A DNA stretch of 64,000 bases from Bifidobacteriaceae bacterium (GTDB lineage Bacteria > Actinomycetota > Actinomycetes > Actinomycetales > WQXJ01). The stretch is from contig JAITJZ010000036.1 in the NCBI GenBank assembly GCA_031278655.1, positions 1,614-65,613 on the forward strand, read 5' to 3'. The notes under the pieces are model-generated. The model made no database searches. It had not been told where the DNA came from and saw only the letters and a list, made by a program, of their open reading frames with translations. This document shows positions 35,376 through 52,174 of the stretch, one piece after another (position 1 is the stretch's first letter; every line of letters begins with the position of its first letter). The translations under genes were made by a program, and so were the position numbers.

Positions 35376-35378
35376 TGA

Positions 35379-37181
35379 TCAGCCCACTCCCGTGATGGTC
35401 AGCAGACCGGTGTAGTTGCCCGCCGCGGTCGAGGCGGGAACCTTCAACTCCAGCGCCGCGGCCACGGTCGCGGCGCCAGTGGTGTGCCCGGCGGCGGCGA
35501 AGGCCAAGGTCCGGGCCGAGCCCAGACCGCCGTCGGCGCCAGCCGTCACAGCCGCTCCGGCCTGCGCCCCGGCCCCGGCGTTGGCCACCACCGGCGTCCA
35601 GCCGAGGTATTGCCCGCCAAAGGCGCCGGCCTCGCCGGAGAAGTCAGACACTTGGCCGCTCAGCGACCATTCCGTCCCAGTTGGACGGGTGTCTGTGACC
35701 TCGATGTTCGGCAGCGCGCCGGTGGCGGCGAAGCCGTCCGAGACCTCGGTGGCGGTGCCCAGCGACACCGCCGCGTTGCCGGTGATCCGCCACGAGAACT
35801 CGCCCGGCTCGGGCTCGTCCGCGCCCTCGGGAATCTCGACATCGACCGGCAGCCCGGGCACAAAGGTCAGCGGCGTGTAGGTCTCGAAGGTCGCTTCGAC
35901 GGCCCCGCCACCCGGATAGGTGTAGATCCCGTAGTTGCCTCCGACCAGGCCTTTCGCCTCAGCGGCGGCATCGGCCGCAGCCTTGGAGACCTCAAATGTG
36001 GCCGTGAACGAGCCGTCTGGCGCCAAGACGATGGCGCCGGCCCCGGCGCCGCCAACGGTCTCGACGAATTCCGACAGCAAAGCCCAGCGGACGGCGGCGG
36101 TGGGACGGGACGCGCTCGTCGCGCCCTCGGACGGGCGCCAGACTTCGGCGAAACGCCCAAAGCCCACGTACACCCCGGAGGACTTGCCCGCCACCGGTCC
36201 GTAGAGGCCGGTGACGGCGCTGGGGTCGAAGCCGGCCCCTTCGACGGTGACGGTGGTGACGCCATCGGCGGACAACTCCACCCGCGAAACCGTCACTGTC
36301 GGCGCCGGCGCGGCCGTCACCTCCCAAGCCACGGCCACCGGATTGGCGATCTTCTTCGGGTCCGCGCCCCCTCCCGACGAGTACCAGTACGAACTCTGGC
36401 CGGTCAACTGCTGGAACTCCACGAACGACTGCGGGAACGAGCCCCAGTTCGCCCCGGTGGTCGACTGACTGACGCCGCTGACCGCGACGCCCAGATACTC
36501 AGGCGCCAACTCGAAGCCGCTGTCCGTCAGGACAATCTCCTCGAAGTCAGCCAGGACGATCGTCTGCGGGGTCACAACCTCCCAGAGGCTCGGGTCATCC
36601 ATGGAGGCGCCATAGCCGGAGCCGGTGGCGGTCAGTTGGCCGGTCCCGTCCGCGTTCACGGTCAGCACCGGGTCCGATGCCGTCCAGTACGTCAGGCCGC
36701 CGTAGTAGACCACGGTGAAGGCGCCCTCCCAGGCGATTTCAGCCGTGCCCGCGTCCAAATCGACGCTGCCCTCGCCGCCGGACAGTTTGACGGCGTTGCC
36801 GGTGGTGGACCCGGCCACCGTGGAGACGGCCGTCCCGGCGGCGTTCAGGCACTTGGTCGCCCAAGTGGGCGCCTCCCAGCCGCCGTCGGCCGTGGGTTTG
36901 ACGATCGACACGTTCCCGGATTGGGCGCTGTAGAAGCCGTCGGCCTCGGTCCACACCCGCGACGAGCCGGTGTTCCCGGCGGCGCCGGCGCTGAGGAAGT
37001 TGCAGCCGCCGAAGTAGGCGCCGCCGCCCGACTCGTCGTTGATCGACCAAGTCAGGGTGACGCCGGCGACGTCAGCCGGCGCGGCCGAGGCGGCGCCGGC
37101 AAAGACCAGGCCGCCGCCAACGGCCAGGGCGCCGGCCGCCAAGAAGGCGGCCCAACGTCCGGGGGTGCGAGCGATTTTCAT
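35379..37181 (-). CDS. Secreted protein: divergent HtaA-like domain + Ig-like domain + C-terminal WxL-like domain
   Basis: RBS GAAAGGA before ATG 37181; signal peptide ending ASA; LTWSIN..SGGGAYFGGCNF...FTVVYYGG...FPQSFVEF..TG..SYWYSSG; C-terminal VTDTR...WSLSGQVSDF...YTGLLTIT. Confidence 0.75.
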   Translation of the reverse strand: MKIARTPGRWAAFLAAGALAVGGGLVFAGAASAAPADVAGVTLTWSINDESGGGAYFGGCNFLSAGAAGNTGSSRVWTEADGFYSAQSGNVSIVKPTADGGWEAPTWATKCLNAAGTAVSTVAGSTTGNAVKLSGGEGSVDLDAGTAEIAWEGAFTVVYYGGLTYWTASDPVLTVNADGTGQLTATGSGYGASMDDPSLWEVVTPQTIVLADFEEIVLTDSGFELAPEYLGVAVSGVSQSTTGANWGSFPQSFVEFQQLTGQSSYWYSSGGGADPKKIANPVAVAWEVTAAPAPTVTVSRVELSADGVTTVTVEGAGFDPSAVTGLYGPVAGKSSGVYVGFGRFAEVWRPSEGATSASRPTAAVRWALLSEFVETVGGAGAGAIVLAPDGSFTATFEVSKAAADAAAEAKGLVGGNYGIYTYPGGGAVEATFETYTPLTFVPGLPVDVEIPEGADEPEPGEFSWRITGNAAVSLGTATEVSDGFAATGALPNIEVTDTRPTGTEWSLSGQVSDFSGEAGAFGGQYLGWTPVVANAGAGAQAGAAVTAGADGGLGSARTLAFAAAGHTTGAATVAAALELKVPASTAAGNYTGLLTITGVG

Positions 37182-39619
37182 GAGACAATTCCTTTCGGTT
37201 GAAGCCGGAACCAGCCGCGACGCCAAGCGATCAAGGCGATGGAGGCTGATACCAGCAGGGTGAGAATCGCGGCGTCTGCCGCGATCCAGGTGCCGGCGGC
37301 CGTACCCCGCACAGGCACCAAGTCTTTGGTGGCGCCGGACAAGACAACGGGCTCGAGGCCGGACCCCCAAGGGTTGGACGCGCCCGTGCCGGCGTCCGCC
37401 CCGCCCTGCGCCCTGGCTTGGATCGCCGCCGCCTTGGCCGCCGCCACACCGCCCAGCCAGCCGCTTGAGGCGCCGCCGGCGCCCGCATTGGTGGTTGTGA
37501 CCGGCGCGTCGATCGCCTTGGCGGCGTCCCAGCTGACATAAACCGGGTCCGGCGGTTTGCGGTGGTCGATCGCCGCCCCCGACGAATACCAATACGAGTG
37601 CAGCCCGGTGCGCCCGTGGAAGTCCACAAACGACTGCGGCCAGGCGCCGGGCGCGCTCGATTCGCCGCCAAGTCTTTGGGTCGGGGCGCCGGCCGGGACC
37701 GCGACCGCCAGGTCGGCGTAGGCGTGGCGCACAACCACGCCGTCGCCGCCAGCGTTCGCCGCCGTGCCCGATGCCGTCGTCCCGTTCGCCAGCACCACGG
37801 CCGTGTCGGGGTGGCGCCCCCAGGCGCCGCCTTCGCGTGGCATGCCGAAGCCGCCGGCGGTGGCGGTCAGTTCGACTTGGCCGCTGGCGCTGATCGTGAT
37901 GACAGGGTCTTCCAGCCAGAAGTAGGTCAGGCCGTCGTAGTAGACCACGGTGAAGGTGGCGTCCCAGGTGATCTGGGCGGCGCCGGTGGCCGTGTCGCGC
38001 CAACCGGTCCCGCCGGTCAGTTTGACCTGGGTGTCGGTGTAGGTCGAAGCCGATTGTTGGGAGGCGTTGTAGCTGACCGGCTGGCCGGCCGGATCCAGGC
38101 AGCGCCGCTCGAATGGGACGCTCTGCCCTTGGGCGTTGACCACTTGGGCGTTGCCGGACTGGGCGTGGTAGAGGTCGCCGCCCCAGTTTCCGGGGTCCCA
38201 TTCGCGCGCCGCGCCGGTGTCGCCGTCCGTCCCCGGACGCCCGGCCATCAGGAAGTTGCAGGCGCCGTAGTAGCTCTTGCCCCTTGTTTCGAGGTTGAAT
38301 CCCCAGGTCAGCTGCGCGTTGACAATGGTCTGGCGGGCGCCATCGCCCGTGTCATTGCCGGAGCCGTCGCCGGAGCCGTTGCCGGAGTCGTCGCGCTGGC
38401 TGGCGCCCGGGATGGTGACGCTGACGGCGATGTCGCCGCCCTCGTCGGGATCGGACCCCCAGGCCGCGCCCGGTCCGCCCGCCCCGACGGCCAGCGTCGC
38501 CAGCGCCAGGCTCAACGCCAGGCGCCGGGCGCGGCGAGTGGCGGCCGCGCCCGCCAGCGAACCGACCAGAACCAGCACAAAGACGATTGCCGCCACCACC
38601 ACGGCGATCTGCCAGGGACCCAGTTGGCGGCCCTCGCCGACGGCGGCGGATTGGCTGGCCTGCTCCGAGGCTTCGACCAGGGACGGGTCACGCCGCACCG
38701 TGAAGGTGGCCTCGGCCGAGGCCCCGGAGGCGGCGCCGGTCAACGTCAGGCTGTGCGTGCCCACCCTCAGGTCCGCCGCCAGCGGGATCGCCGCCGCCAC
38801 CTCCCCGAACTGTCCGGCCGTCAGCGGGCCGACGGCCGCCACGCCATCGTCCAAGACGGCTGTGACCTGCTCGCCGGGCGCGAAACCGCGTCCCGTGAAC
38901 GCCAAAGCGTGCCCGGCCACGGCGGTGGTGGCGTCCACCCCCAGCGTCGCCACCCCGGTGGCCGGGACCACCCCGGCGCCGGCGCCATCGGCGGCCGTCT
39001 CGCCGTCGGCCCCGGCACCGGCCGTGGCGGCGGCGGTGGCGGCGGTCGCGCCGTCGAAGCTGACCGGCGTGAAGGTCTCATTGTTGGCGTTGACAACGCC
39101 ATGCGCCCCAATGGTGATGACGCCGCACTGGGTCTGGCGGCAATCAACCCGCTGGGCCTGGCCGGCGGCGTCCTCGACATCGAAGACCGCCCCCGGAACC
39201 ACCAGGGTGGTCGCCCAGGAGCCGTCAGCGGCGATGACGCCGCCGTTGGCGGAGCTGGCCGTCTCCGAGCCGATGAAGGCGACGAACTTCTCCCGCCCGG
39301 CGTTGTCCTTGGTCTGGGCGTCCGGCACATACAGGAAATCGCGCCCGCCAACGCCCCCGGCCGAGGGCCGCCAGTCGCCCGAGACGGCGCCGAACAGCAC
39401 GTAGATGCCGCCGAAGCCGCCCTCGATGGCCTGGAAGCCGCTGCCTGTCAGCGTCAAAGTGGTGGCGGCCTCGGCGTTGGCCCGGGCCTCGCCGCCCACA
39501 CCGGCCACCGCCACGGACGCGCCCGCCGCCCGCGCCGGGCCGCCAACCCCGCCCACGGCCAGGCCCGCCAGGGCCCCCGCCGCCAGCCCGGCCACCAGCA
39601 GTTGTCTCAAGCGACGCAT
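37178..39619 (-). CDS. Membrane-anchored surface protein: Ig-like domains + internal TM pair + HtaA-like domain + C-terminal TM
   Basis: Signal peptide from ATG 39619; LTGSGF...GIYVLFG...WRPS..DCRQTQCGV; second copy of the LTW.FN...CNFL.AG...YYDG...PQSFVDF...SYWYSSG domain. Confidence 0.72.
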   Translation of the reverse strand: MRRLRQLLVAGLAAGALAGLAVGGVGGPARAAGASVAVAGVGGEARANAEAATTLTLTGSGFQAIEGGFGGIYVLFGAVSGDWRPSAGGVGGRDFLYVPDAQTKDNAGREKFVAFIGSETASSANGGVIAADGSWATTLVVPGAVFDVEDAAGQAQRVDCRQTQCGVITIGAHGVVNANNETFTPVSFDGATAATAAATAGAGADGETAADGAGAGVVPATGVATLGVDATTAVAGHALAFTGRGFAPGEQVTAVLDDGVAAVGPLTAGQFGEVAAAIPLAADLRVGTHSLTLTGAASGASAEATFTVRRDPSLVEASEQASQSAAVGEGRQLGPWQIAVVVAAIVFVLVLVGSLAGAAATRRARRLALSLALATLAVGAGGPGAAWGSDPDEGGDIAVSVTIPGASQRDDSGNGSGDGSGNDTGDGARQTIVNAQLTWGFNLETRGKSYYGACNFLMAGRPGTDGDTGAAREWDPGNWGGDLYHAQSGNAQVVNAQGQSVPFERRCLDPAGQPVSYNASQQSASTYTDTQVKLTGGTGWRDTATGAAQITWDATFTVVYYDGLTYFWLEDPVITISASGQVELTATAGGFGMPREGGAWGRHPDTAVVLANGTTASGTAANAGGDGVVVRHAYADLAVAVPAGAPTQRLGGESSAPGAWPQSFVDFHGRTGLHSYWYSSGAAIDHRKPPDPVYVSWDAAKAIDAPVTTTNAGAGGASSGWLGGVAAAKAAAIQARAQGGADAGTGASNPWGSGLEPVVLSGATKDLVPVRGTAAGTWIAADAAILTLLVSASIALIAWRRGWFRLQPKGIVS

Positions 39620-40404
39620 GGCGTCACCGGCCTTCGGCCGCGGATCGGCGCCACCACCGGCAGCCCGGTGGCCGGGTCCGGCCAAACCCCGATCGGGTGG
39701 CGGTAGAGGTCGCTCAGCCGGTCGGGGGTGGCGATCTCCGCCACCGGGCCGGCGCCGACCAGCCGCCCGTCGCCGATCAGCGCCAGCTGATCGGCCCAGG
39801 CCGCCGCCAACGACAAATCGTGCAGCACCGCCAGCACCGCCCGGCCGCGTCCGGCCTCGCGCCGCGCCAACGACATGACCAACTCCTGATGGCGGATGTC
39901 GAGCGCCGCCGTCGGCTCGTCCAACAGCAGCACATCGGCCTGCTGCGCCAGCGCCCGGGCGAAGGCGACCCTGGCTTTCTCCCCGCTGGACAGGGTTTGG
40001 AAGATCCGCCTGGCCAGGTCGAGCGTGTCGGTGGCGGCGAGCGCGGCGGCGACGGCGGCATCGTCGGCTTCCTCCTGCCCGCCCCGCCACGGCGCCCGCC
40101 CCATCCGGACCACGTCCGCGACCGAGAACGGGAACGACACCTGGGCCTCGGCCAGCATGACGGCCCGGCGGCGGGCCAAAGCCTTGACGCCAATCCCGTG
40201 CAGCGCCCGCCCGTCCAACGTCACCTGGCCGTCGGTGGGCCTGATGTCGCCCGCCAGGACGGCCAGCAGCGTCGACTTGCCGGCGCCGTTCGGCCCGGCC
40301 AGGACCAAGACTTCGCCCGGCCTCACGGCCAGGTCGATCCCGCGCAGAATCTGGGCCTGCCCCACCTGGTAATGGACGCCGTGCGCCGCCAACAGGGCCG
40401 CCAT
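39607..40404 (-). CDS. hmuV: Heme ABC transporter ATP-binding protein
   Basis: GPNGAGKST, LSSGEKARV, LLLDEPTAALD.RHQE, VLHDL. Confidence 0.9.
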   Translation of the reverse strand: MAALLAAHGVHYQVGQAQILRGIDLAVRPGEVLVLAGPNGAGKSTLLAVLAGDIRPTDGQVTLDGRALHGIGVKALARRRAVMLAEAQVSFPFSVADVVRMGRAPWRGGQEEADDAAVAAALAATDTLDLARRIFQTLSSGEKARVAFARALAQQADVLLLDEPTAALDIRHQELVMSLARREAGRGRAVLAVLHDLSLAAAWADQLALIGDGRLVGAGPVAEIATPDRLSDLYRHPIGVWPDPATGLPVVAPIRGRRPVTPCVA

Positions 40405-41615
40405 CAGCCCCACCCCCCGGCCTGGCGGCGCGCCCGGCGCAGCAGGTAGAAGAAGAACGGGCCGCCGACCAGCGAGGTCAGCATGCCGATCGGCAGGTCG
40501 GCGTAGTTGACAGCCGTGCGCGCCACCAGATCGGCGGCCATCAGCAGGACCGCGCCGCCGAGCGCGCTGGCCGGGAGCAGCAGGCCGTGCCCCGGTCCCA
40601 GCGCCATCCGCATCAGGTGGGGCGCCACCAGGCCGACAAAGGCGATGATGCCGCTGAAGGCGACCGCCGCCGCGGTCAGGAAGGCCACCAGGACGATGAC
40701 GCCGATCCGCAACCGCTCAACGTCGACGCCCAGGTGGCGGGCGGAGCGCTCGCCCAAGCTGAGCAGGTCGAGCGGGCGCGCCAGGGTCATGGCCGCGGTC
40801 ACGGCCACGACCACGACCGGCGCCGCCACGGCCACATATTGCCAGCGCGTGCCGTTGAGCGAGCCGAGTTGCCAGAAGATGATCTCCTCGCGGGCGGAGC
40901 TGTCCGCCAGGAAGACGAACAGGGCGATGGCGGCCCCGGCCACGGCGTTGACGGCCACGCCGGTCAGCACCAAGGTCACCACTTCGGTGCGGCCCCCGGC
41001 CCGGCTGAGCCCGTAGACCAGCAGGGTGGAGCCGAGCCCGCCGGCGAAGGCGAGCCCGGCCGTGGACCACGGCCCCAGCGCTCCGGCGCCCAGGGCGATG
41101 CCGCCGCAGGCCGCCGCCGCCGCTCCAGCGCTGACACCGATCACTCCCGGCTCCGCCAATGGGTTGCGGAAGACCCCTTGCATCAACGCCCCGGCCGTCG
41201 CCAGGGCGGCCCCGGCCAGGGCCGCCAGGGCCAGGCGCGGCAGCCGGACCGACATCAGCACGGCCTCCGCGTTGGTCGCCTCCGGCGCCGTCCCCAGCTC
41301 GAGGCCCAATTTGCCGGCCAGCAGGTGAATCACCTGATCCGGCGGGATGTCCATTTGGCCGATCCCAGCCGAAGCGATCACCAGGGCCACGGCGGCCAGC
41401 CCCAGGCCGGTCAGGACGGCGGCGGCGCGTCCCGGGCGGGCGGGCGGCAAGGCCGCCACCGGAGCGCGCCCGGTCGGCCCGGTCGGCCCGGCCGGGCCGG
41501 CCACGTCCGGCGGCGGGGCCACGCCGGGCGCCAGGTCCACGTCCGGCGCCAGGTCCACGCCCGGCGCCAGGTCCACGCCCGGGGTCGCGGCCGCCGGGCG
41601 CGCGGCGGCGGTCAC
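40404..41615 (-). CDS. hmuU: Heme ABC transporter permease (FecCD family)
   Basis: RLPR, FRNPLAEPG, FWQLGSL, A.HLGVD, GGPFF; N-terminal PGVDLA-type repeat x3 at 41522-41582. Confidence 0.9.
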   Translation of the reverse strand: MTAAARPAAATPGVDLAPGVDLAPDVDLAPGVAPPPDVAGPAGPTGPTGRAPVAALPPARPGRAAAVLTGLGLAAVALVIASAGIGQMDIPPDQVIHLLAGKLGLELGTAPEATNAEAVLMSVRLPRLALAALAGAALATAGALMQGVFRNPLAEPGVIGVSAGAAAAACGGIALGAGALGPWSTAGLAFAGGLGSTLLVYGLSRAGGRTEVVTLVLTGVAVNAVAGAAIALFVFLADSSAREEIIFWQLGSLNGTRWQYVAVAAPVVVVAVTAAMTLARPLDLLSLGERSARHLGVDVERLRIGVIVLVAFLTAAAVAFSGIIAFVGLVAPHLMRMALGPGHGLLLPASALGGAVLLMAADLVARTAVNYADLPIGMLTSLVGGPFFFYLLRRARRQAGGWG

Positions 41616-42751
41616 TGGGCCGCCTCCGGCGTGTAGATGGCCGTCGCCAGGGCGTCCAGGACGTCGGCGCTGTTCGGGCCGAAGGCCAAAATCTGGGCGT
41701 CGTCCATGTCGACGAAGCGCCGCTTGGTTCCCGCCGGCGTCGCCGCCACGGCGGGCAGTCTCTCCAGCAGGCCGTCTACCCCGCCCACGGATTCCAGGCC
41801 GCGGGTCATCACCAGGATCAGGTCGGGGCTCATCGCCACCAGCCCCTCATCGGTGACCGGCTGCATCCCATCCCAGCCCACCTCGCTGGCGACATCGATC
41901 CCGCCCAGGGCCGTGATCAGCGAGTCTGTCCCCGATCCGCTCCCGAACAGGTAATAGACGCCGGCGCTGCCCCGCAAGTAGAGGAAGGCCATGCGCAGCC
42001 TGTCCTGGTCTGCGGCCGGAACGGCCTTGGCGATCGCTTCCTTGGCGGCAGCTATCTGGCGCTCGGTCCGCTGGGCCAACTCGGCCCCCTCGTCCGGCAG
42101 GCCGAGCGCCGCCGCCACCTGGCCGATCAGTTCGGCGGCGGTGTCGAGCGAGCGGTGCGAATCGACCACCACCACCGGGATGCCGGCCTCGCGCATCTGC
42201 AGCAGCACATCCCACGGTCCCAGCGACGTGTCGGTGATGATGACCGAGGGCGCCAGTTCCAGGATCGCCTCGGCGCTGAGCGTGTTGCCCGATGGCGTCA
42301 CCCGGGGCAGGTCTTGGATTTCGGCGAAGCCCGATGACGTGTCGCGCCCGATGACGTTGGCGCCCAGTCCCAGCGAGAAGACGATCCGGCTGGTGGTGCC
42401 GTAGATGTCGAGGGCCAGGAGCCGGCTGACGTCGGTGACGGTGACCAGGGTTCCTTGGGCGTCGGTGACCGTGGCCGGCAGGGCCGGCCGCGGGTTGGTG
42501 GCGATGGGCTCGATGGCTGCTTCCGCGACCACCGCCGTCGAGGGGCCGGTGTGGGATTTCGGGTCGGCCAGGGCCGCGGCCGGATCGAACGAGCGGGCGC
42601 CGGCCCCCGGGCCGGCGCCGGGCGTGGCGGCGCCGCAGCCGCCCGTCAGCACCGCCGCCGCGGCCGCCCGGGGCGCCCAGGCCGCGCTGGCCGCCCTTCG
42701 CCCAACCGATCCCAATCGAATCTCCTTCGACGCTCGCCGCACAAGCTCCAT
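41612..42751 (-). CDS. hmuT: Heme ABC transporter substrate-binding lipoprotein
   Basis: Lipobox-like LTGGC; LALDIYGT, FLYLRG.AGVYY, VMTRGLES as in corynebacterial HmuT. Confidence 0.85.
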   Translation of the reverse strand: MELVRRASKEIRLGSVGRRAASAAWAPRAAAAAVLTGGCGAATPGAGPGAGARSFDPAAALADPKSHTGPSTAVVAEAAIEPIATNPRPALPATVTDAQGTLVTVTDVSRLLALDIYGTTSRIVFSLGLGANVIGRDTSSGFAEIQDLPRVTPSGNTLSAEAILELAPSVIITDTSLGPWDVLLQMREAGIPVVVVDSHRSLDTAAELIGQVAAALGLPDEGAELAQRTERQIAAAKEAIAKAVPAADQDRLRMAFLYLRGSAGVYYLFGSGSGTDSLITALGGIDVASEVGWDGMQPVTDEGLVAMSPDLILVMTRGLESVGGVDGLLERLPAVAATPAGTKRRFVDMDDAQILAFGPNSADVLDALATAIYTPEAAQ

Positions 42752-42786: not shown

Positions 42787-42913
42787 CAGATCCGTCCGCT
42801 ATTTGGACACATCCTTGTGTCGAAAATGGTGACACGGGGCGAGCCCCGGCCGTTGCCGTGACTCGTCGAGGCTCTGAAGTGCTTGAACGCTTCAATTTCT
42901 GGGGTTCTGGGGC

Positions 42914-42953
42914 AAACGAAAGGCGGCCCCGGCGCCGAAGCGCCGGGGCCGCC
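42914..42953 (-). terminator. Intrinsic terminator of cydAB
   Basis: GGCGGCCCCGGCGC-TTCG-GCGCCGGGGCCGCC 14-bp stem followed by TTTCGTTT on the minus strand. Confidence 0.9.
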
Positions 42954-42956
42954 CGA

Positions 42957-43010
42957 TGGCTAAATCTTGGCCGAGTGGCCAGATCTTCGCCGTTGGCTAG
43001 ATCTTGGCCG
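42957..43010. repeat. Three near-palindromic 17-bp copies; the last contains the cydB stop
   Basis: TGGCTAAATCTTGGCCG / TGGCCAGATCTTCGCCG / TGGCTAGATCTTGGCCG. Confidence 0.85.
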
Positions 43011-45330
43011 GATCCAGACCCGACTCAGCCGGAATCCGCTCAGCGCTGATGCGCCTGCGGAAGACCCAAATCGACCAAGCCTGGTAGGCCAACACGATCG
43101 GCACCAAGCAGATGGCCACAATGGTCATCAACTGCAGTGTCTTCTCGCTGGAAGCCGCCGCGTGGATCGGCTGACCGGTGATGACAGCACTGCCATCGTC
43201 CGCCCACTCCTCCAGCGGGACGAACGCGGCCAACGGCACCACGGCATCGTCCTTGTCTGTGACCATGCCGAGCGCGTGCAAAGCCGCCAACGCGCCGTTC
43301 GCGTTCTGGACCCGGCCGTTCAGGTTCGCCAAGCCAGAATCGTTGGGCCATGCCTCGCCGTTGGCGATCTTTGTCAGATCCATGCCGTCGACGAACTTCG
43401 GCGTCTTGGGATCATCGGCCACGGATTGCAGAACCACGACCACATCCCCCAAGACCGCCTGAACCGAACCGGCCACCGCGCCCAGCACGCCCTCGACCGT
43501 GGTCGGGAGCTGATCGATCGCCGCTTGGACGGTCTTTTCGACTTCCGCCACAACCGTCGCCGCCGGCAACCCACCGATGGTGGAACTGCCGGAGACGATG
43601 TCTGCGACCACGGCGCCAACAGTGGCGTCATCGGCGGGCAAGCCATTGCGGGCCAAGGTGATCTTGACAGTGGTGATGACGTCGCCGGCGGGAATGACCC
43701 CAGCCGCCACCGTCAACGAGCCATTGGCGATCCCCGGCACGTCCGCCAGCACCGCCGCCGTCAAGGCCTTGGCTTCCTCGCCGGCCTCGGCCTGGACATC
43801 GGCGTAGGTCAGCGCGCCGCTCTGGAGCGCCGCGCCCACCCGGGCGAAGGCCGCGGTGACCACCAACTGAACCTGCTCTTGGTCAATGGCGCCAGCGGCC
43901 GGGAACGTGCCGGCCAAGGAGTCGGCCAAGACCTTGGCGGTCAAGGCGGTGGCCGCCTCGCCCGGCGCGCCTTGGACGTCGGCCGGGTTCAGGCTGCCGT
44001 CGCCAACGGCGCCGGCCACCCGCTCGAACGTCTTGTCGACCACGAGTTTGACATCAGCCACGGGCAGCAACCCGGCTGGCCAGTACTCACTCGTGACGAT
44101 GGCCGTCCGGGCGCCGCTCTGAACATCTTCCGAAAGCAGATCGGTGACGATCAGCGGTGTCAGCGTCTCAGCCGTGTACGGGCTGGGATCGGCTTGCAAA
44201 TCCGCCGCCGCGGTCTTCTCCACTTCGGCGAAGGTCAGCGCCACCACGTCGTTGACATTCAGGCCAGCGCCGTCGTTGTCGGTTCCCAGGACGATCCGTC
44301 CAACGATCGGATCGGAAATCGCGTCGCCCTTCAGCGCCACATTCGACCCGTTGATGACGTTCGGGAACAGCGTGGCGAAGATGGTCACGACGGCCGCCAG
44401 CAGCGCCACCGTCATCGAGGTGAAGGCGAGGCCGAACTTCCTGGCCAGAGTCGTCAGGACGACCACGATCAAGCCCAGCGCCGCCACCGCGATGGCGATC
44501 CAGACCAAAGCCGTCGGGTGGTTGCCGCCCGCGAACTTCAGGCCCAGCCACACCACCCAGACGGCGGCGATGACCGTGGCCACGATCGACAGCTTGGGCG
44601 CCAGCGACTCGGAGCGCTGGCGGACCTCGCCGTCAGTCTTGAGCGACAAGAAGATGGCGCCGTGGGCCATGAACAAGGCCGCCGTGGTCAAACCGCCCAG
44701 GAGCAGGAAGCCCTGGTGGGCGAAGACCAGATCGAAGAAGGTGCCGTTGTAGACAATCTTCGACGGCCCGAGCTGCGTCGGGTCGACGGCCGCTTTGACG
44801 CCGGCGACCAGGTTGGCGAAGGCCACGCCCCACAGGATCGCGGGAATCCACGAACCCAGGATGATGCACCAATCCCAGAGCTTGCGCCAGCCGTCACCGT
44901 TGATCTTGCCGCGGTACTCGAAGGCCACGGCGCGGATGATCAGACCGACCAGAATCAGGAACAGCGGCAGATAAGCCGCGCTGAACAGGGTCGCATACCA
45001 TTCGGGGAAGGCCGCGAAGGTGGCGCCACCAGCTGTCAGCACCCAGACCTCGTTGCCGTCCCAGAGCGGGCCGATGGTCGAGAGCATCGCCCGGCGTTCG
45101 CTGTCCTTCTTGCCGATGATCGGCAACAACATGCCAACGCCGAAGTCGAAGCCTTCGAGCACCAGATAACCGGTCCACAGGACCGCGATCAAAGAGAACC
45201 ACAACAACTCCAGCCCGGTCGGCGCGGTCACCAGACGGTGCAGCAGCGAAACCAAGGCATTGGCGGTGGCTTCGGTCCCTGCCGGGTCGACCTCGGCTGC
45301 CGGAGCGAGAGCGAGAATGCTAGTCAACAT
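42997..45330 (-). CDS. cydB: Cytochrome bd oxidase subunit II with an insertion of about 390 aa
   Basis: LEGFDFGVG, IGPLWDGNEVW, AFPEWYA, final PIVLAYQAWSIWVFRRRI helix; RBS AAGGAG. Confidence 0.95.
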   Translation of the reverse strand: MLTSILALAPAAEVDPAGTEATANALVSLLHRLVTAPTGLELLWFSLIAVLWTGYLVLEGFDFGVGMLLPIIGKKDSERRAMLSTIGPLWDGNEVWVLTAGGATFAAFPEWYATLFSAAYLPLFLILVGLIIRAVAFEYRGKINGDGWRKLWDWCIILGSWIPAILWGVAFANLVAGVKAAVDPTQLGPSKIVYNGTFFDLVFAHQGFLLLGGLTTAALFMAHGAIFLSLKTDGEVRQRSESLAPKLSIVATVIAAVWVVWLGLKFAGGNHPTALVWIAIAVAALGLIVVVLTTLARKFGLAFTSMTVALLAAVVTIFATLFPNVINGSNVALKGDAISDPIVGRIVLGTDNDGAGLNVNDVVALTFAEVEKTAAADLQADPSPYTAETLTPLIVTDLLSEDVQSGARTAIVTSEYWPAGLLPVADVKLVVDKTFERVAGAVGDGSLNPADVQGAPGEAATALTAKVLADSLAGTFPAAGAIDQEQVQLVVTAAFARVGAALQSGALTYADVQAEAGEEAKALTAAVLADVPGIANGSLTVAAGVIPAGDVITTVKITLARNGLPADDATVGAVVADIVSGSSTIGGLPAATVVAEVEKTVQAAIDQLPTTVEGVLGAVAGSVQAVLGDVVVVLQSVADDPKTPKFVDGMDLTKIANGEAWPNDSGLANLNGRVQNANGALAALHALGMVTDKDDAVVPLAAFVPLEEWADDGSAVITGQPIHAAASSEKTLQLMTIVAICLVPIVLAYQAWSIWVFRRRISAERIPAESGLDPAKI

Positions 45331-45353: not shown

Positions 45354-46898
45354 TCAGTAAGAGAAGGTCAGCGGCTTGGACTCGTCCAAGTCGGCCTTCA
45401 CTTCGGGGATGGCTTCGTCGTAGTTGAGGCCCTTGGACGTGTACCGCTTCATCAGGTAGAACCAAGCGATCGCCAGGACCAAATAGATCAGCGTGAAAGA
45501 GATCACCGTCAGCCAGATCGAGCCCGCGCTCACCACCGGCGAGACCGCGTCGACGGTCTGCAGCGACAGATCCGTCCCAACGCCGCTGAGCACATGCTCG
45601 GGCGTCAGCGTGGCGACCGGGTAGACGATGAACGGCTGGCGACCGATCTCGGTGAAGATCCAGCCGAAGCTGCCCGCCAGGAACGGCATCGGCAGGGACA
45701 GCAGCGCCCAGAACTTCAGGAAGCCGCTGCCGGTGGTCCGCCGCCCGCGCAAGGCCCACAGGCCGACCAGCGCCAACACCGCCGAGAACGCGCCCAGCGC
45801 GATCATCAGGCGGAAGGACCAGAACGTGACCCCCTGCGGCGGAATCCAGTCGATGCCCGCGGCTTCTTCTGGCGTCAGGTAGGCGTCGTCCAAGACCTGC
45901 TCGGCCGTGTTCATGCCGGTCACCTTGGCGCTGCCATCGCTCCAAGCCAGCCACGAGAGCAGCTTCGGGATTTCGATGAGGCGGTTGACGCCATCGTTTG
46001 CCTTGGGGTCATTCAGGTCGGGATTCTCGATCGCCTCCTGGGTGCATTCGCCGAAGGCGATGACGGTGAAGCCGGCGCCCTCGCCTTCGTCAGGCGTGAC
46101 GCAGAGCAACTCGGCGGCCGCCATCTTGGTCGGCTGCAATTCGGTGATGACCTGGGCCTGATGATGGCCGGAGAAGATCAGGGAAATGCCTGCGATCAGC
46201 ACGGCCCAGCAGCCCACGGCCCCGCCGAGGCGGTAAACCTGGGCCGATTCCTCGTTGCCGGCCCGCACCGCCCGCACGACCCACCAGATCGCGATGCCGG
46301 CCATGAAGGTGCCGGCCACCACGAAGGAGGTCGAGATGGTGTGCCAGAAGGTCGACAGCGACAGCTTCGAGAACAGCACCTCACCCAGGTTGTCCATCTG
46401 GGCGCGCTGGAGATCGGAGTTGAAACTGGAGCCGGCCGGATACTGCATGAACGAGTTGGCGGCCAGGATGAAGAAGGCCGAGAGATTGACGGCGAAGGCC
46501 ACCAGCCAGATCGTCAGCAGGTGGACGCCGCGCGAGAGCCGGCCCCAGCCGAAGATCCAGATGCCGAGGAAGGTCGACTCGATGAAGAACGCTGCCAGCG
46601 CCTCCATGGCCAGGGGTGCGCCGAAGATGTCGCCCACCATGCGCGAGTATTCGGACCAGTTCAAACCGAACTGGAACTCTTGGACGATGCCGGTGACAAT
46701 ACCCAGCGCGAAGTTAATCAGTAAGAGCTTGCCGAAGAATCGTGTCAGGCGGTACCACTCGTCTCTGCCGGTCTTGAACCAGAAGGTCTGGAGCAAGGCC
46801 ACCAAGGGCGTCAAGCCGATGGTTAGCGGCACAAAGATGAAGTGGTACACAGTGGTGATGCCGAACTGCCATCTAGCTAGATCAAGCGCGTCTTGCAT
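45354..46898 (-). CDS. cydA: Cytochrome bd oxidase subunit I
   Basis: LARWQFGITTVYHFIF, QEFQFG.NW, QPTKMAAAE, FRLM, TEIGRQP. Confidence 0.97.
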   Translation of the reverse strand: MQDALDLARWQFGITTVYHFIFVPLTIGLTPLVALLQTFWFKTGRDEWYRLTRFFGKLLLINFALGIVTGIVQEFQFGLNWSEYSRMVGDIFGAPLAMEALAAFFIESTFLGIWIFGWGRLSRGVHLLTIWLVAFAVNLSAFFILAANSFMQYPAGSSFNSDLQRAQMDNLGEVLFSKLSLSTFWHTISTSFVVAGTFMAGIAIWWVVRAVRAGNEESAQVYRLGGAVGCWAVLIAGISLIFSGHHQAQVITELQPTKMAAAELLCVTPDEGEGAGFTVIAFGECTQEAIENPDLNDPKANDGVNRLIEIPKLLSWLAWSDGSAKVTGMNTAEQVLDDAYLTPEEAAGIDWIPPQGVTFWSFRLMIALGAFSAVLALVGLWALRGRRTTGSGFLKFWALLSLPMPFLAGSFGWIFTEIGRQPFIVYPVATLTPEHVLSGVGTDLSLQTVDAVSPVVSAGSIWLTVISFTLIYLVLAIAWFYLMKRYTSKGLNYDEAIPEVKADLDESKPLTFSY

Positions 46899-47120
46899 GT
46901 GCACCTCCGCAGTGAGGTTAGGGAACGAAAGGGACAGATTTTAAGTTGTTAGCCGGGCAGGGGCGAACGCGCCCGAAGCCATGTTTCACGCTATGTTGAA
47001 CCGGCTCAGGTTCATGGGCCTTAGGTCCCAAAGTCTTCACAGTTTCTGCCAACTTCTTCACGATTGAACCCACTTTGACGACGACTTCGGTAGGAGTACT
47101 CCCTTTGACAGGACATTTAG

Positions 47121-47435: not shown

Positions 47436-50321
47436 GTGACCGAAGAACAACCGCAACTCGAAATTGAGTTGCCCAAAGCCCGTCAACGCGCGCCTCGGCG
47501 CGCCACCGCCAGCCAGGCGTCTCCCGACATCAAGGCCCTCGACCAGTTGGTCGACCTGAGCGACGCCATTTCCCGGCGCTCGGAACGGCAGTCGGCCGAG
47601 TCTGGCGCCCAGCCCGCCCAGCCGGACGCGGCGCCGCGCCGGGCCCGGTCCGCCAGGTCCGCGGCCAGGTCCGCCACCGGGTCGAAGACAGCGCCCGATG
47701 CCGCCAAGGGGCCATTGGACGAAGCCCCGGCCGGGGCGCAGTCCGGGACCGGCGGCGCGGACGCACGCCCGGCCAGGAGGCGCGCGACCGCCAAGCGCGC
47801 CGGCGGCCGCCAAGCGGCGCCCGGCGCCGAGGCCGCGCCGGACGCCGCCCCGACCGAGTCCCAGCCGCAGGCCGCGTCAGCGAAGGCCCAGCCGCAAGCC
47901 GCGCCCGATGGCGTCCAGCCGCAAGCCGCGTCAGCCAAGGGCCAGCCGCAGGCCGCGCCAGATGGGGCCGCGTCAGATGGGGCCGCGCCAGATGGGGCCG
48001 CGCCCAAGGCCACCGCCAAGACCAAGAGCACCAGCCGGCGCGCCAGCGCCAAGGCCACCCAGACGGCCACCCAGACGGCGGCCCAGACGGCGGCGGGCGA
48101 GGCGCCAGCGCCGGTCGGCGGACGCTTGCCCATGACGGCGCTCCTTTTCCAGGCCCCGGTCCTGGCGCCGCCGCGCCGGCGCGCCGGCGCCTCAGCCGCG
48201 CCGGAAGACCCGGACGACGACCTCGAACCCGGGCTGGGCGCCGGCCCTGACCAAGACGGCGGCCCGGCCGACCAAGCGTCGCAGCCCTCGGCCCAAACGG
48301 GCGGGCAAGCAGGCGCCCAATCCGCCAGCCGCTCCCGGCGGCGGCGGGCCACCGCCAAGGCGAGCCCCGACCAAGGCGACGGCGCGGCGGCGGGCGATGG
48401 CACGGCATCGGGCAACGGCGGCGAAACCGGCGGCAAAGACGACCAACGCGGCCCCGCCGACGAGGACGGCCAAACCGCGCCGGCCGAGGCCCCAGAAGCA
48501 GAGGAATCGGGCTCGCGCCGCCGGCGGCGCCGCAGCCGCGAAGGGCGCAAAACCGAAGGCGGCGCCCAGGTTGTCGCGTCCGTGTCCGGATCGACGCGCC
48601 TGGAGGCCAAACGCCAACGCCGCAAGGAGGGACGCGAGACCGGGCGGCGGCGCATGCAGATCACCGAGGCGGAGTTCCTGGCCCGCCGTGAATCGGTCGA
48701 ACGGCGGATGGTGGTGCGCGAACGCGACGGGCGCACACAGATCGCCGTGCTCGAAGACGGCGTGCTGGTGGAGCATTACGTGGCCCAGCGCACCCAGCAT
48801 TCAATGGTCGGCAACGTCTACCTGGGGCGCGTCCAAAATGTGCTGCCGTCGATGGAGGCCGCCTTCGTTGACGTGGGACGCGGGCGCAACGCCGTCCTCT
48901 ACGCCGGCGAGGTCAACTGGGACGCCGCCGGCCTGGAGGGCCAACCGCGCCGGATCGAACTGGCGCTGGCGAGCGGCGACGCGGTCATGGTGCAGGTCAC
49001 CAAGGACCCGATCGGGCACAAGGGCTCGCGCCTGACCTCGCAGATCACCCTGGCGGGGCGGTATCTGGTGCTGGTGCCGGACGGCTCGATGACCGGCATC
49101 TCGCGCAAACTGCCGGAGACCGAGCGCCAGCGGTTGAAGAAGCTGCTGAAAGAGATCGTGCCGCAAGGCTCGGGGGTGATTGTGCGCACGGCGGCCGAGG
49201 GCGCCTCCGACGCGGAGCTGAAAGCCGACGTCGAACGCCTCGTCGCCGCTTGGGCCAAGATTCAACAGAAGGCGACCACGGCCCAGGCCCCGGCGCTGCT
49301 CAAGGGCGAGCCGGACCTGGCCATCCGGGTGGTGCGGGACATTTTCAACGCCGACTTCACGTCGCTGACCGTCTCCGGCGCCAGCGCCTGGGACGACATC
49401 AGCGGCTACCTCACGGAGATCGCCCCCGAACTGTGCGACCGCGTCCAACGTTGGACCTTAGACCAGGACGTTTTCCAGGCCGACCGGATCGACGAGCAGT
49501 TGTCCAAGGGCATGGACCGCAAGGTCTGGCTGCCGTCCGGCGGCTCGCTGGTGATCGACCGGACCGAGGCCATGACCGTGATCGACGTCAACACCGGCAA
49601 GTTCACCGGGTCCGGCGGCTCCCTGGAGGAGACCGTCACCCGCAACAACCTGGAGGCGGCCGAAGAGATTGTGCGCCAGCTGCGGCTGCGGGACATCGGC
49701 GGGATCATCGTCATCGACTTCATCGACATGGTCCTGGAGTCGAACCGCGACCTGGTGCTGCGCCGTCTGGTCGAGGCGTTGGCCCGCGACCGCACCCGTC
49801 ACCAGGTGGCCGAGGTCACCTCGTTGGGGCTGGTCCAGATGACCCGCAAACGGGTCGGTCAGGGGTTGGTCGAGGCCTTCTCCGAGACCTGCGAGGCTTG
49901 CGGCGGGCGCGGTTTCATTGTCCACGCCGATCCGGTCGAGCGCGACACGTCGCGCTCCGACGGGGCTGGTGGCGGCCGGGGTTCGGGCGGTTCCGGCGGT
50001 TCCGGGGGTTCCGGGGGCGCGGAGGGCGGCTCGAAACGCAAGAAGCGCGGCGGCAAGAAGCACCGCCGCAAGGCCGCCGATGCCGCCGGGCCGGATTCCA
50101 GCGCCGCCCCCGGGAACGCTGGCAACGGCTCGGGCGGCGGACGCGCGGGCGGCGCCCCGGTCCTGGCCGAAACCCCGCCCGAGGCCAAGGCGACCCTGGC
50201 CTCAATCGCCGCCGCGGCCGCCGCCTCACGCGAGACCGCCGAAACCAAAGCCGCGCCGGGCGCCGCCAGCCACAGCCCGGCGACGCCGGACACGCCCGCC
50301 TCAAACACCACAGCAACCTAA
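47436..50321 (+). CDS. rne: Ribonuclease E/G family, actinobacterial type with disordered flanks
   Basis: GSTRLEAKRQRR, VGNVYLGRVQNVLPSMEAAFVD, IDVNTG, IDFIDM, CEACGGRG. Confidence 0.97.
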   Translation: MTEEQPQLEIELPKARQRAPRRATASQASPDIKALDQLVDLSDAISRRSERQSAESGAQPAQPDAAPRRARSARSAARSATGSKTAPDAAKGPLDEAPAGAQSGTGGADARPARRRATAKRAGGRQAAPGAEAAPDAAPTESQPQAASAKAQPQAAPDGVQPQAASAKGQPQAAPDGAASDGAAPDGAAPKATAKTKSTSRRASAKATQTATQTAAQTAAGEAPAPVGGRLPMTALLFQAPVLAPPRRRAGASAAPEDPDDDLEPGLGAGPDQDGGPADQASQPSAQTGGQAGAQSASRSRRRRATAKASPDQGDGAAAGDGTASGNGGETGGKDDQRGPADEDGQTAPAEAPEAEESGSRRRRRRSREGRKTEGGAQVVASVSGSTRLEAKRQRRKEGRETGRRRMQITEAEFLARRESVERRMVVRERDGRTQIAVLEDGVLVEHYVAQRTQHSMVGNVYLGRVQNVLPSMEAAFVDVGRGRNAVLYAGEVNWDAAGLEGQPRRIELALASGDAVMVQVTKDPIGHKGSRLTSQITLAGRYLVLVPDGSMTGISRKLPETERQRLKKLLKEIVPQGSGVIVRTAAEGASDAELKADVERLVAAWAKIQQKATTAQAPALLKGEPDLAIRVVRDIFNADFTSLTVSGASAWDDISGYLTEIAPELCDRVQRWTLDQDVFQADRIDEQLSKGMDRKVWLPSGGSLVIDRTEAMTVIDVNTGKFTGSGGSLEETVTRNNLEAAEEIVRQLRLRDIGGIIVIDFIDMVLESNRDLVLRRLVEALARDRTRHQVAEVTSLGLVQMTRKRVGQGLVEAFSETCEACGGRGFIVHADPVERDTSRSDGAGGGRGSGGSGGSGGSGGAEGGSKRKKRGGKKHRRKAADAAGPDSSAAPGNAGNGSGGGRAGGAPVLAETPPEAKATLASIAAAAAASRETAETKAAPGAASHSPATPDTPASNTTAT
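47862..48095. repeat. In-frame tandem repeats in the rne N-terminus (QPQAA x4, DGAA x3, ATQT units)
   Basis: 27-, 15- and 12-bp units seen directly. Confidence 0.8.
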
Positions 50322-50362
50322 CGGCACATTCCCACAGCCGACCAATGTAGGATCAGCGGTTG

Positions 50363-52174
50363 ATGAAGCCCCTCGATCCGCGACTGATCAGGCATGCGCG
50401 CGCCGCTCGCAGCTACATGGTTCTGACGGCCATGCTCGGTGTGGTGATGTCGGTGGCGGTGGTCTGCCAAGCCATCTTGGTGGCGCGGGGCGTGGGCGGA
50501 TTGGCCTCAGGCGTCGGGTTCGGGCCGGAGGAATGGACGCGCCTGCTGGGGGCCGTCGGGCTGATCGTGGTCATCCGCGTGGCCGTGGCCTGGACGCAGG
50601 AGCGCTTCGCGCACCGGGCGGCGGCTGAGACCATCGCCGAATTGCGGGGCTCGGTGCTGAAACACGTGGTGGCGCTGGGGCCGCGCTTCGAGGCCGAGGG
50701 CGGCGCCGCCAAGGCGGCGCAGCTGGTGACACGCGGGCTGGACGCCCTCGACGCCTATTTCACGCGCTACCTGCCGCAACTGTTGATGGTGGTGACGGTG
50801 ACGCCGATCCTCCTGGTGGTGGCCGGATTCGTGGACTGGATCTCAGCCATCATCATGTTTGTGACGGTCCCCCTGATCCCGGTCTTCATGGTGCTGATCG
50901 GGCGGCTGACAGAGGCCTATTCCGCCCGCCGCCTCGCCACCATGACGAACCTGGGCGCTCAGGTCATGGACCTCATCACCGGGCTGCCAACGCTCAAGGC
51001 CCTTGGCCGTGAGAAGGGGCCGGCGGCGCGCGTGCGCAAATTGTCTGTGGCCCACCAGAAGGCCACCTTCGCCACCGTCCGGGTGGCCTTCTTGTCCGGG
51101 GCCGCCCTGGAATTGATCGCCACCTTGTCGGTGGCGCTGGTGGCGGTGGCGGTCGGCTTGCGCCTGCAAGCCGGGCGCATGGACCTGATTGACGGCTTGG
51201 CCATCATCATGATCGCGCCGGAGATCTATCTGCCGCTGCGCAACGTCGGCGCGCACTTCCACGCCTCCGCCAACGGCGTGGCCGCCTCCAACCGCGCCTT
51301 CGACCTGCTGGCGGTGCCGGCGCCGCCGGCCGGGCGCCTCCCGGCCCCAGATTTGGCCGCCGCCACGATCATCTTTGAGCAGGTCTGCGTCGACGCGCCC
51401 GGGCGCGGCTACCAAGCCCCGGCCGACCTCTCCTTCACCTTGCCGCCGGGCGCCCTGACCGCGCTGACCGGCCCCAACGGGGCCGGCAAATCGACCGCCG
51501 TGGCGGTGCTGCTGGGTCTGACGCGGCCGACATCGGGCCGGGTGATGGTCCAACCCGGCGACGGCTCGGCGGCGCTCGACCTCAGCCAGATCGACCCGCC
51601 AAGCTGGTGGGCGCAGATCGCCTGGGCGCCGCAGCGCCCCGCGCTCGCGCCCGGGACCGTGCTCCAAAACCTGCTCGAGGTCTACGACTCGGACCCGGCG
51701 GCGACCGCCGCCGTCGAACGGGCGGCGCGCGCCGCCGGTTTCGACTCCGTTGTCAGGTCGCTGCCCTCCGGTTGGCAAACGAGGATCGGCCACGGCGGCC
51801 TGGGATTGTCGGTCGGCCAGCGTCAACGCCTGGCCCTGGCCCGGGTCTTCCTCCAAGACAAGCCGCTCGTCATCTTGGACGAGCCGACCGCCCACCTCGA
51901 CGCCGCCACCGAGGAACAGGTGCTGGCGTCCATCCGGTCGCTCGGGCGCCAGGGCCGCACGGTGCTGCTGGTGGCGCATCGCCAGACGCTGCGCGCCCAA
52001 GCCCAAAGTTCGGTGGCGGTCCGCTCGACCGCTGTGGACGGGGCGGAACTGGTGGCCGCGGGCGGGCCGACGGCGGGGGGCGCTGGGTCCGCCGCGACGG
52101 CATCGGGAACGGGCGATGCCGACGCGACCGGCGCCGGCCCGACGGGCGCCCACACGAACGGGGACGCGCCATGA
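50363..52174 (+). CDS. cydD: Thiol/heme ABC exporter subunit CydD
   Basis: MKPLDPRL, YFTRYLPQL, APEIYLPLR..GAHFHASA, GPNGAGKST, LSVGQRQR. Confidence 0.93.
   Translation: MKPLDPRLIRHARAARSYMVLTAMLGVVMSVAVVCQAILVARGVGGLASGVGFGPEEWTRLLGAVGLIVVIRVAVAWTQERFAHRAAAETIAELRGSVLKHVVALGPRFEAEGGAAKAAQLVTRGLDALDAYFTRYLPQLLMVVTVTPILLVVAGFVDWISAIIMFVTVPLIPVFMVLIGRLTEAYSARRLATMTNLGAQVMDLITGLPTLKALGREKGPAARVRKLSVAHQKATFATVRVAFLSGAALELIATLSVALVAVAVGLRLQAGRMDLIDGLAIIMIAPEIYLPLRNVGAHFHASANGVAASNRAFDLLAVPAPPAGRLPAPDLAAATIIFEQVCVDAPGRGYQAPADLSFTLPPGALTALTGPNGAGKSTAVAVLLGLTRPTSGRVMVQPGDGSAALDLSQIDPPSWWAQIAWAPQRPALAPGTVLQNLLEVYDSDPAATAAVERAARAAGFDSVVRSLPSGWQTRIGHGGLGLSVGQRQRLALARVFLQDKPLVILDEPTAHLDAATEEQVLASIRSLGRQGRTVLLVAHRQTLRAQAQSSVAVRSTAVDGAELVAAGGPTAGGAGSAATASGTGDADATGAGPTGAHTNGDAP

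Follow-up and report, generated by a model that had tools for sequence, protein, structure and literature searches.

We report here on the cydB gene of a Bifidobacteriaceae bacterium, which encodes subunit II of cytochrome bd oxidase and is located in a 64,000-nucleotide (nt) stretch of contig JAITJZ010000036.1 (the whole stretch is referred to below as the window). Our results demonstrate that its product, a protein of 777 amino acids (aa), is a known enzyme carrying a domain without detectable relatives, inserted between transmembrane helices 8 and 9 (TM8 and TM9) and restricted to a small uncultured clade. We propose that the TM8-TM9 loop would have lengthened stepwise inside one actinobacterial family and would then have duplicated units of 60 aa. 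By this route, the loop would have become a folded, strongly acidic, all-helical ectodomain composed of a base, a stack of units, and a C-terminal module, with no detectable donor. We consider the anatomy and origin of the insert, as described in the following sections, to be very probably correct.

The CydB core and the anatomy of the insert

The cydB gene (42997..45330, minus strand; 777 aa plus stop codon, an open reading frame [ORF] recognized by PF02322 and TIGR00203) is located directly 3' of cydA (45354..46904, minus strand), which encodes the 516-aa subunit I of cytochrome bd oxidase; the two genes are on the same strand, with a gap of 23 nt. The cydA product matches PF01654 (E value of 7.8e-142) and aligns with CydA from Mycobacterium smegmatis (7d5i_A; E value of 1e-142). 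CydB scores 309.2 bits against Pfam family PF02322 (cutoff, 35.6) in two stretches, the best of which covers residues 40 to 331 (E value of 4.2e-92), and 282.3 bits against NCBIfam family TIGR00203 (cutoff, 117.3). As solved CydB chains are 333 to 379 aa in length, the present protein is beyond the usual size. The 777-aa ORF is a real cydB, and its large size is a variant feature that leaves its membership in the CydB family unaffected.

In an alignment with M. smegmatis CydB (7d5i_B), residues 39 to 327 correspond to chain residues 2 to 284, and residues 722 to 773 correspond to chain residues 295 to 346. The extra sequence therefore consists of a 38-aa N-terminal extension and of 393 aa between TM8 and TM9 (residues 329 to 721, nt 43168 to 44346), where 7d5i_B has about 10 residues. 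A full-length AlphaFold model built from 31 sequences (predicted local distance difference test [pLDDT], 83.2; predicted template modeling score [pTM], 0.69) superimposes, over model residues 38 to 777, on the CydB of Mycobacterium tuberculosis (9fka_B) with a Z score of 43.9 and a root mean square deviation (RMSD) of 1.7 Å for 339 aligned residues of the 346-residue chain. This suggests that the nine-helix core is complete and that the insert lies outside it. The core from TM1 to TM8 (44347..45216, minus strand; residues 39 to 328, delimited by Pfam, the 7d5i_B alignment, and the model) displays a mean pairwise identity of 0.80 and 151 invariant columns in an alignment of 14 proteins, and the segment comprising TM9, the basic cytoplasmic tail, and the stop codon (42997..43167, minus strand; residues 722 to 777) displays an identity of 0.77.

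The insert is rich in Ala and Val (A, 72; V, 54; G, 38; L, 37; D, 33), contains no Cys, one His, and two Met residues, and has a net charge of -32 and an isoelectric point of 4.05. Its conserved part forms a base close to both membrane anchors, and the repeat units make up a middle that is more variable. The base proper (44164..44346, minus strand; residues 329 to 389) contains the invariant motif DPIVG and a strand leaving TM8, found at residues 324 to 333 in the full-length model; its invariant columns among the 14 proteins are D340 to G344, V347, and L348, and its mean pairwise identity is 0.47. On the other side of the repeats, the C-terminal module (43168..43575, minus strand; residues 586 to 721, delimited by the secondary structure of the model and by conservation) is predicted to comprise a helix of about 50 residues (590 to 639), a second helix (663 to 686) with the motif GLANLN, and a return strand into TM9. 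This module contains 21 invariant columns, 15 of them within residues 641 to 700, and most invariant positions of the insert sit on the second helix. In the repeat region, only 8 of 196 columns are invariant, and the mean pairwise identity is 0.48.

Three full units of 60 aa, each a helix-loop-helix, are present in this CydB, together with a partial match at residues 356 to 386. Unit 1 (43948..44163, minus strand; residues 390 to 461) was detected by jackhmmer with an E value of 8e-16, unit 2 (43768..43947, minus strand; residues 462 to 521) with an E value of 1e-25, and the more diverged unit 3 (43576..43767, minus strand; residues 522 to 585) with an E value of 4e-17; the helices of unit 2 in the model span residues 458 to 472 and 484 to 504. 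Units 1 and 2 are identical at 23 of 47 positions (z score of 13.2, a score reached by 0 of 500 shuffles), and the two repeat stretches begin at positions 99 and 159 of the insert, a spacing of 60 residues. The relationship of unit 3 is weaker, with z scores of 3.6 against unit 2 and 0.9 against unit 1. An iterative hidden Markov model (HMM) started from one 60-residue unit identified two to five copies in each of 23 insert-bearing proteins. Unit 1 fills alignment columns 425 to 497, which are empty in 13 database relatives, and would thus be a duplication specific to this lineage; a different extra unit is present in two other proteins of the 14-protein alignment. No DNA-level tandem repeats were found within the insert.

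These results bear out the details that an earlier reading of this DNA, made from the letters alone (the sequence-only reading), had described. It had reported a 777-aa CydB with an N-terminal extension of about 38 aa and an insertion of about 390 aa at 43175 to 44340, essentially the interval delimited here. It had also placed this insertion between two named motifs, in the outside loop before the last transmembrane helix, and the 7d5i_B alignment agrees, the outside location following from homology. The acidic, Ala/Val-rich, Cys-free composition and the diverged repeats were likewise recognized correctly, as was the motif AEVEKT occurring twice (at residues 368 and 595).

Neither a donor nor a known fold is detectable for the insert, and we do not claim a new fold. 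When folded alone from 12 sequences, the insert is predicted to be almost wholly helical (pLDDT, 77; pTM, 0.77). In Pfam, the insert matched no family at an E value of ≤0.01, and across 12 insert members no family was common to any two at an E value of ≤1, with four single weak matches. A profile search of 1.84 billion representative proteins gave two matches, both CydB, and no free-standing form; no second copy was found in the organism's own genome at an E value of ≤1, and the ESM Atlas provided no usable match. With the whole-insert model as the query, by which residues beyond about position 316 of the insert (the last 75 or so) were barely tested, the best Foldseek match in the PDB had an E value of 0.2, and the best VIA-align match among 48,161 chains had a Z score of 3.9, with none at 5 or above, which is below the usual level for unrelated helical models.

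Authenticity, distribution, and origin of the insert

A search with the insert region among 5.8 billion clustered proteins retrieved 13 other proteins, all of them CydB (673 to 743 aa), which are labeled at their source as metagenome-assembled genome proteins from "Bifidobacteriaceae bacterium" or from "Micrococcales bacterium" or are left without a name. We also surveyed long CydB-like proteins, using a normal 348-aa actinobacterial CydB as the query and examining proteins of 610 to 2,000 aa among the 8,000 candidates sharing most words, a design that could miss long CydB proteins of distant phyla. Among the 102 proteins listed, 23 are split by an HMM of normal CydB at profile position 275 to 285, approximately, with 290 to 466 extra residues. 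All 23 are complete and come from separate assemblies, and one further protein ends inside the insert. In the other 78, the CydB match is contiguous or partial, and none has an insertion at the TM8-TM9 site; many of these contain CydA, ABC-transporter, or NDH-2-type domains at one end. The new bd oxidase architecture with a large surface domain put forward in the sequence-only reading is thus genuine and conserved, with the insert at the same site in 23 of the 102 long CydB-like proteins listed. As to its uniqueness, no large CydB insertion was met in the portions of the literature available, and the insert is not peculiar to this genome: it spans an entire small clade, whose members are listed in databases under the plain name CydB.

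The insert breaks a conserved gene exactly in frame, as might an assembly chimera, an intein, or a mobile insertion that is excised or left untranslated. In the assembly data, a termite gut metagenome run contains one weak contig joint that links 43771 to 44392 and so passes over 620 nt of the repeat region, and there are loose contig ends at 43746 and 44414. The shorter side of this joint is only 23 letters, and joints with a shorter side below 30 letters often stem from other organisms or repeats; moreover, 620 is not a multiple of three. The skip could represent a related strain with other repeat content or an assembly effect at repeats. Against an artifact, a 1,561-nt contig from a different assembly of the same run covers 42862 to 44422 with 0 differences and spans both junctions, with the qualification that the run contains 0.98 of the sampled words and may be the source of the present DNA, so that the contig is not independent. 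The same architecture is, in addition, found in the 23 complete proteins from separate assemblies. An intein was considered and rejected, as neither a Hint nor a homing-endonuclease domain is present among Pfam matches, and the insert ends with Gly-Gln-Pro followed by Ile, not with the C-terminal His-Asn of an intein; nor did the insert match any mobile element in the libraries searched.

The coding properties of the insert also speak against this alternative. The GC contents at the three codon positions are 0.70/0.47/0.83 in the insert and 0.58/0.46/0.88 in the core, so that the insert is host-like at the third position. Ratios of nonsynonymous to synonymous substitution (dN/dS) calculated with the Nei-Gojobori method are 0.11 to 0.39 for the insert in 10 of 11 pairs and 0.09 to 0.24 for the core, at dS values of 0.4 to 1.6 that bring some ratios near saturation. 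The eleventh pair (insert dN/dS of 0.69) was set aside, since its inserts are only 39% identical and differ in unit content, and the aligned columns may not be orthologous. Judged from these sequence comparisons, the insert appears to be translated and under purifying selection weaker than that on the core; no RNA data set was listed among the public runs containing this sequence. We therefore regard an artifact or selfish element as extremely improbable. The pair set aside can be compared with another pair: both display 92% core identity and similar dS, and the insert identities are 39% versus 71%, which could be due either to very fast evolution in one lineage or to an exchange of unit sets.

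In genomes, an insert profile matched 12 of the 19 members of the family, always inside cydB, including 9 of the 10 other genomes of the window's genus and both genomes of a second genus. In the single genome of the window's genus that was not matched (73% complete), CydB itself was not found. For the order as a whole, the profile matched 12 of 401 genomes and none of the 382 that lie outside the family. According to our own alignment (two loci were missed by the motif filter), the TM8-TM9 loop is 15 to 16 aa in all 10 CydB proteins from other families of the order; 41, 56, and 64 aa in three sister genera; 159 aa in a fourth genus, represented by one genome; and 297 to 473 aa in the 12 loci of the two insert-bearing genera. 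When the loop was deleted and a maximum-likelihood tree was built from the core alone (23 rows, four overextended or partial rows being left out, midpoint root), the loop-length classes were nested, with supports of 100/99 for the family, 97/95 for the 159-aa form as sister to the long clade, and 95/91 for a single clade with loops of at least 297 aa.

The loops of 41, 56, 64, and 159 aa in the sister genera look like intermediate stages. HMMs of the repeat unit and the C-terminal module detected nothing significant in these 41- to 159-aa loops (best whole-sequence E value of 0.025 among six sequences), which display a short, motif-level likeness to the big insert only. Support for continuity from the short loops to the large insert thus comes from position and the tree, not from sequence. 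Given that the outgroups and all solved structures have a short loop, the simplest reading is that the loop grew stepwise and that units were then duplicated and lost within the genus. The N-terminal extension (45217..45330, minus strand; residues 1 to 38, residue 39 being aligned with chain residue 2 of 7d5i_B) has a different distribution, as it is common to the whole family, short-loop members included (about 35 aa in the sister genera); in the full-length model, it contains a predicted helix at residues 16 to 33 (pLDDT, 82 to 90).

Location and possible function of the ectodomain

In the available passages of two papers on bd oxidases (PMC9846854, PMC8951039), CydA and CydB are described as sharing a common nine-helix fold related by a pseudo-twofold axis, with TMH2, TMH3, and TMH9 of both subunits forming the interface, and the TMH8-TMH9 loop of CydA (PL8) is described as periplasmic and packed on Q-loop helix Qh3. 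In the present CydB, the tail after TM9 is basic, in contrast to the strongly negative insert. The homology with PL8, the interface helices, and this charge contrast therefore point, most plausibly, to an insert that lies on the outer side of the membrane and is anchored where the two subunits meet.

The outer loops of CydA are also longer in this organism. Compared to 7d5i_A, CydA is longer by 13 residues behind the second Cys of the Q-loop, in accord with the slight Q-loop extension after the Cys pair pointed out in the sequence-only reading, and by about 9 residues in PL8. In the 10 genomes whose CydB loop reaches 159 aa or more, the CydA Q-loop is 96 to 107 residues and PL8 is 29 to 32 residues, versus 89 to 90 and 23 to 25 residues, respectively, in 3 genomes with short CydB loops. 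This lengthening fits a coevolving outer surface or a contact of the ectodomain with CydA. A complex prediction from the CydA alignment and the insert alignment gave a score of 0.00, where the mark is 0.32, which speaks neither for nor against binding.

The genome, which is 92.65% complete, contains one CydA and one CydB, and a heme-copper oxidase (PF00115) was not found in it. CydAB with the insert is thus the only terminal oxidase found, and the insert-bearing CydB has to work. Residues H21, E101, H188, K260, and E265, which we take to be heme-ligand and Q-loop residues of CydA by the E. coli numbering, are invariant among 13 CydA proteins.

We tentatively favor, somewhat short of an even chance, the possibility that the insert is a structural ectodomain capping or shielding the outer face of CydAB. 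The domain would sit as a cap or tower on this face, stabilizing or shielding the enzyme and possibly making contact with the longer Q-loop and PL8 of CydA. The long Q-loop insert found in CydA of Proteobacteria provides the analogy for this reading. A more specific version, in which a domain that arose de novo from a 16-residue loop, with intermediate stages surviving in the sister genera, now forms an outer cap that is anchored at the CydA-CydB interface, contacts the Q-loop/PL8 region of CydA, and tunes or protects quinol oxidation, seems unlikely. A catalytic, redox, cofactor-binding, or heme-binding module is unlikely, judging from the sequence, because Cys is lacking from the insert and no column of invariant His, Tyr, Met, or Cys is present among the 14 proteins. 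In the available text of PMC8951039, the O2 channel is located inside CydB and leads on to CydA; since the domain lies outside the membrane, a role as a cap over O2 entry, which the sequence-only reading had raised along with possible Q-loop capping and oligomerization, is also unlikely.

Several observations weigh against the cap. Its placement on CydA, and any function, are inferred only. In all 11 pairs, evolution is faster in the insert than in the core, and the number of units changes within the genus; together with the few invariant columns of the repeats, this fits weak constraint. The colengthening of the CydA loops is confounded by phylogeny, as it compares one clade with its sisters, some of the dN/dS ratios are near saturation, and the direction of loop growth depends on outgroup comparison with a tree rooted only at its midpoint.

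Some of these same observations raise the possibility that the expansion is simply tolerated, with little or no function. A permissive outside loop would have gained sequence and duplicated a 60-aa unit, and the insert would be kept only since it must fold and not disturb the enzyme. Units vary from 2 to 5 and the insert from 297 to 473 aa within one genus, the repeats are far less conserved than the core (identity of 0.48 versus 0.80), insert dN/dS exceeds that of the core in every pair, and the insert has neither relatives elsewhere nor conserved ligand-type residues. On the other side, dN/dS remains at 0.11 to 0.39 in 10 of the 11 pairs, the domain is retained in all 23 complete CydB proteins of the clade that were listed, the invariant columns of the C-terminal module include a run of polar Asn and Trp positions, a confident fold is predicted from only 12 sequences, and the outer loops of CydA are longer in the same lineages. 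We consider tolerated expansion possible, if somewhat unlikely. The ectodomain could, alternatively, be a docking platform for another part of the cell envelope, for example heme-uptake proteins, the cell wall, or a partner enzyme, to which the oxidase would thereby be linked. An importer consisting of Peripla_BP_2, FecCD, and ABC ATPase proteins (39607-42751, minus strand, by Pfam) is encoded directly downstream of cydB. Ferrochelatase (PF00762) is present in the genome, and ALAD/HemB (PF00490) was not found at this level of completeness, which hints at heme scavenging; a Lactococcus lactis genome used as a control likewise has a ferrochelatase match and no ALAD match, a pattern that we presume to be linked to heme scavenging. 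The domain is, furthermore, large, acidic, and built of repeats, as many binding scaffolds are. However, of the 6 related loci with 1.2 kb or more of downstream sequence, only 3 have the binding-protein gene of the importer after cydB, the invariant residues expected for heme binding are lacking, and no partner candidate cooccurs with the insert in the material examined. Docking is accordingly an improbable explanation, and the suggestion in the sequence-only reading that the domain docks the neighboring heme-delivery proteins is weakened.

Related systems and neighboring genes

The structural cap that we favor can be compared with several known additions to bd oxidases. The closest known proteins are the canonical actinobacterial CydB subunits, namely the B chains from M. 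tuberculosis (7NKZ/9FKA), M. smegmatis (7D5I), and Corynebacterium glutamicum (8B4O), which have the PF02322 fold (Z scores of 42 to 44 and RMSD of 1.6 to 2.0 Å over 328 to 341 aligned residues), 42 to 47% core identity, and the same cydA-cydB gene order. In these chains of 333 to 360 aa, TM8 and TM9 are separated by about 10 residues, whereas the present protein has 393 residues at this site and the 38-aa N-terminal extension. The long Q-loop of proteobacterial CydA (L-subfamily) resembles the insert in that extra extramembrane mass is placed in an outside loop of a bd oxidase. The L-type insert is much smaller, about 60 aa, and lies in the TM6-TM7 loop of CydA, without repeats and without sequence relation to the TM8-TM9 insert of CydB, so that the likeness is one of analogy only. 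According to the titles of studies on it, the L-type insert is reportedly needed for assembly, structural integrity, and function. CydX/CydS and CydH/CydY are also lineage-specific additions to the CydAB core, described in part of the literature as stabilizing, but they are separate single-helix membrane proteins and not a soluble domain inserted in CydB; in the passages available from PMC9846854 and PMC8951039, the mycobacterial and C. glutamicum enzymes have no small accessory subunits.

Fusions of CydB to CydA, to CydD-type ABC proteins, or to NDH-2-type flavoproteins are long CydB-like proteins as well and were found in the same survey, with the difference that their CydB part is contiguous and the extra part is joined at one end, without an internal insertion between TM8 and TM9. 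Eight of the survey proteins (759 to 809 aa), some of them labeled Streptomyces, combine CydB-like and NDH-2-type flavoprotein domains (PF07992, PF00070); where this was checked, CydB forms one uninterrupted stretch at an end of the protein. They may be fusions of a quinone reductase and an oxidase subunit or artifacts of gene calling.

Bd oxidases have long been classified by the length of the Q-loop, and CydB has been described as a protein of about 40 kDa with an invariant fold, in the available text of PMC8951039, a 2022 review. Discussions of the solved enzymes, as far as the accessible literature goes, concentrate on the Q-loop of CydA as the extramembrane element and present CydB as a compact scaffold without cofactors. 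The full-text literature on bd oxidases, in the portions available, makes no mention of a large CydB insertion, and the supplements of the bd superfamily paper (10.1101/2021.01.16.426971) may list CydB variants. In the present organism, the CydB of the only terminal oxidase found is doubled in size by an ectodomain. If the domain touches the quinol site, this clade would offer a natural experiment in the modulation of bd oxidases, which are drug targets in pathogens, at their outer face, and if the de novo cap contacting CydA is true, the supposedly passive CydB would have gained an outward-facing role. Should the domain be dispensable, it would be no more than an oddity confined to a single uncultured clade. 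Whichever role applies, the nested loop lengths within this family offer an uncommon case, and one that can be dated, of a new domain growing out of a loop by accretion and tandem duplication.

Around cydAB, three large Ala/Gly/Thr-rich ORFs (34119-40090, minus strand), with hydrophobic stretches near their ends, resemble surface proteins; they have no Pfam match at an E value of ≤0.01 except a subthreshold WxL match (E value of 0.0069). Genes similar to cydD and cydC, encoding ABC proteins (PF00664 and PF00005), are located at 50360-52174 and about 52171-53937 on the plus strand, opposite to cydAB, and are separated from cydAB by an ORF of 961 aa (47436-50321, plus strand). At the 3' end of cydB, an 18-nt tandem repeat (42953-43010 of the window; 3.2 copies, 80% match) overlaps the stop codon and the last codons of the gene.

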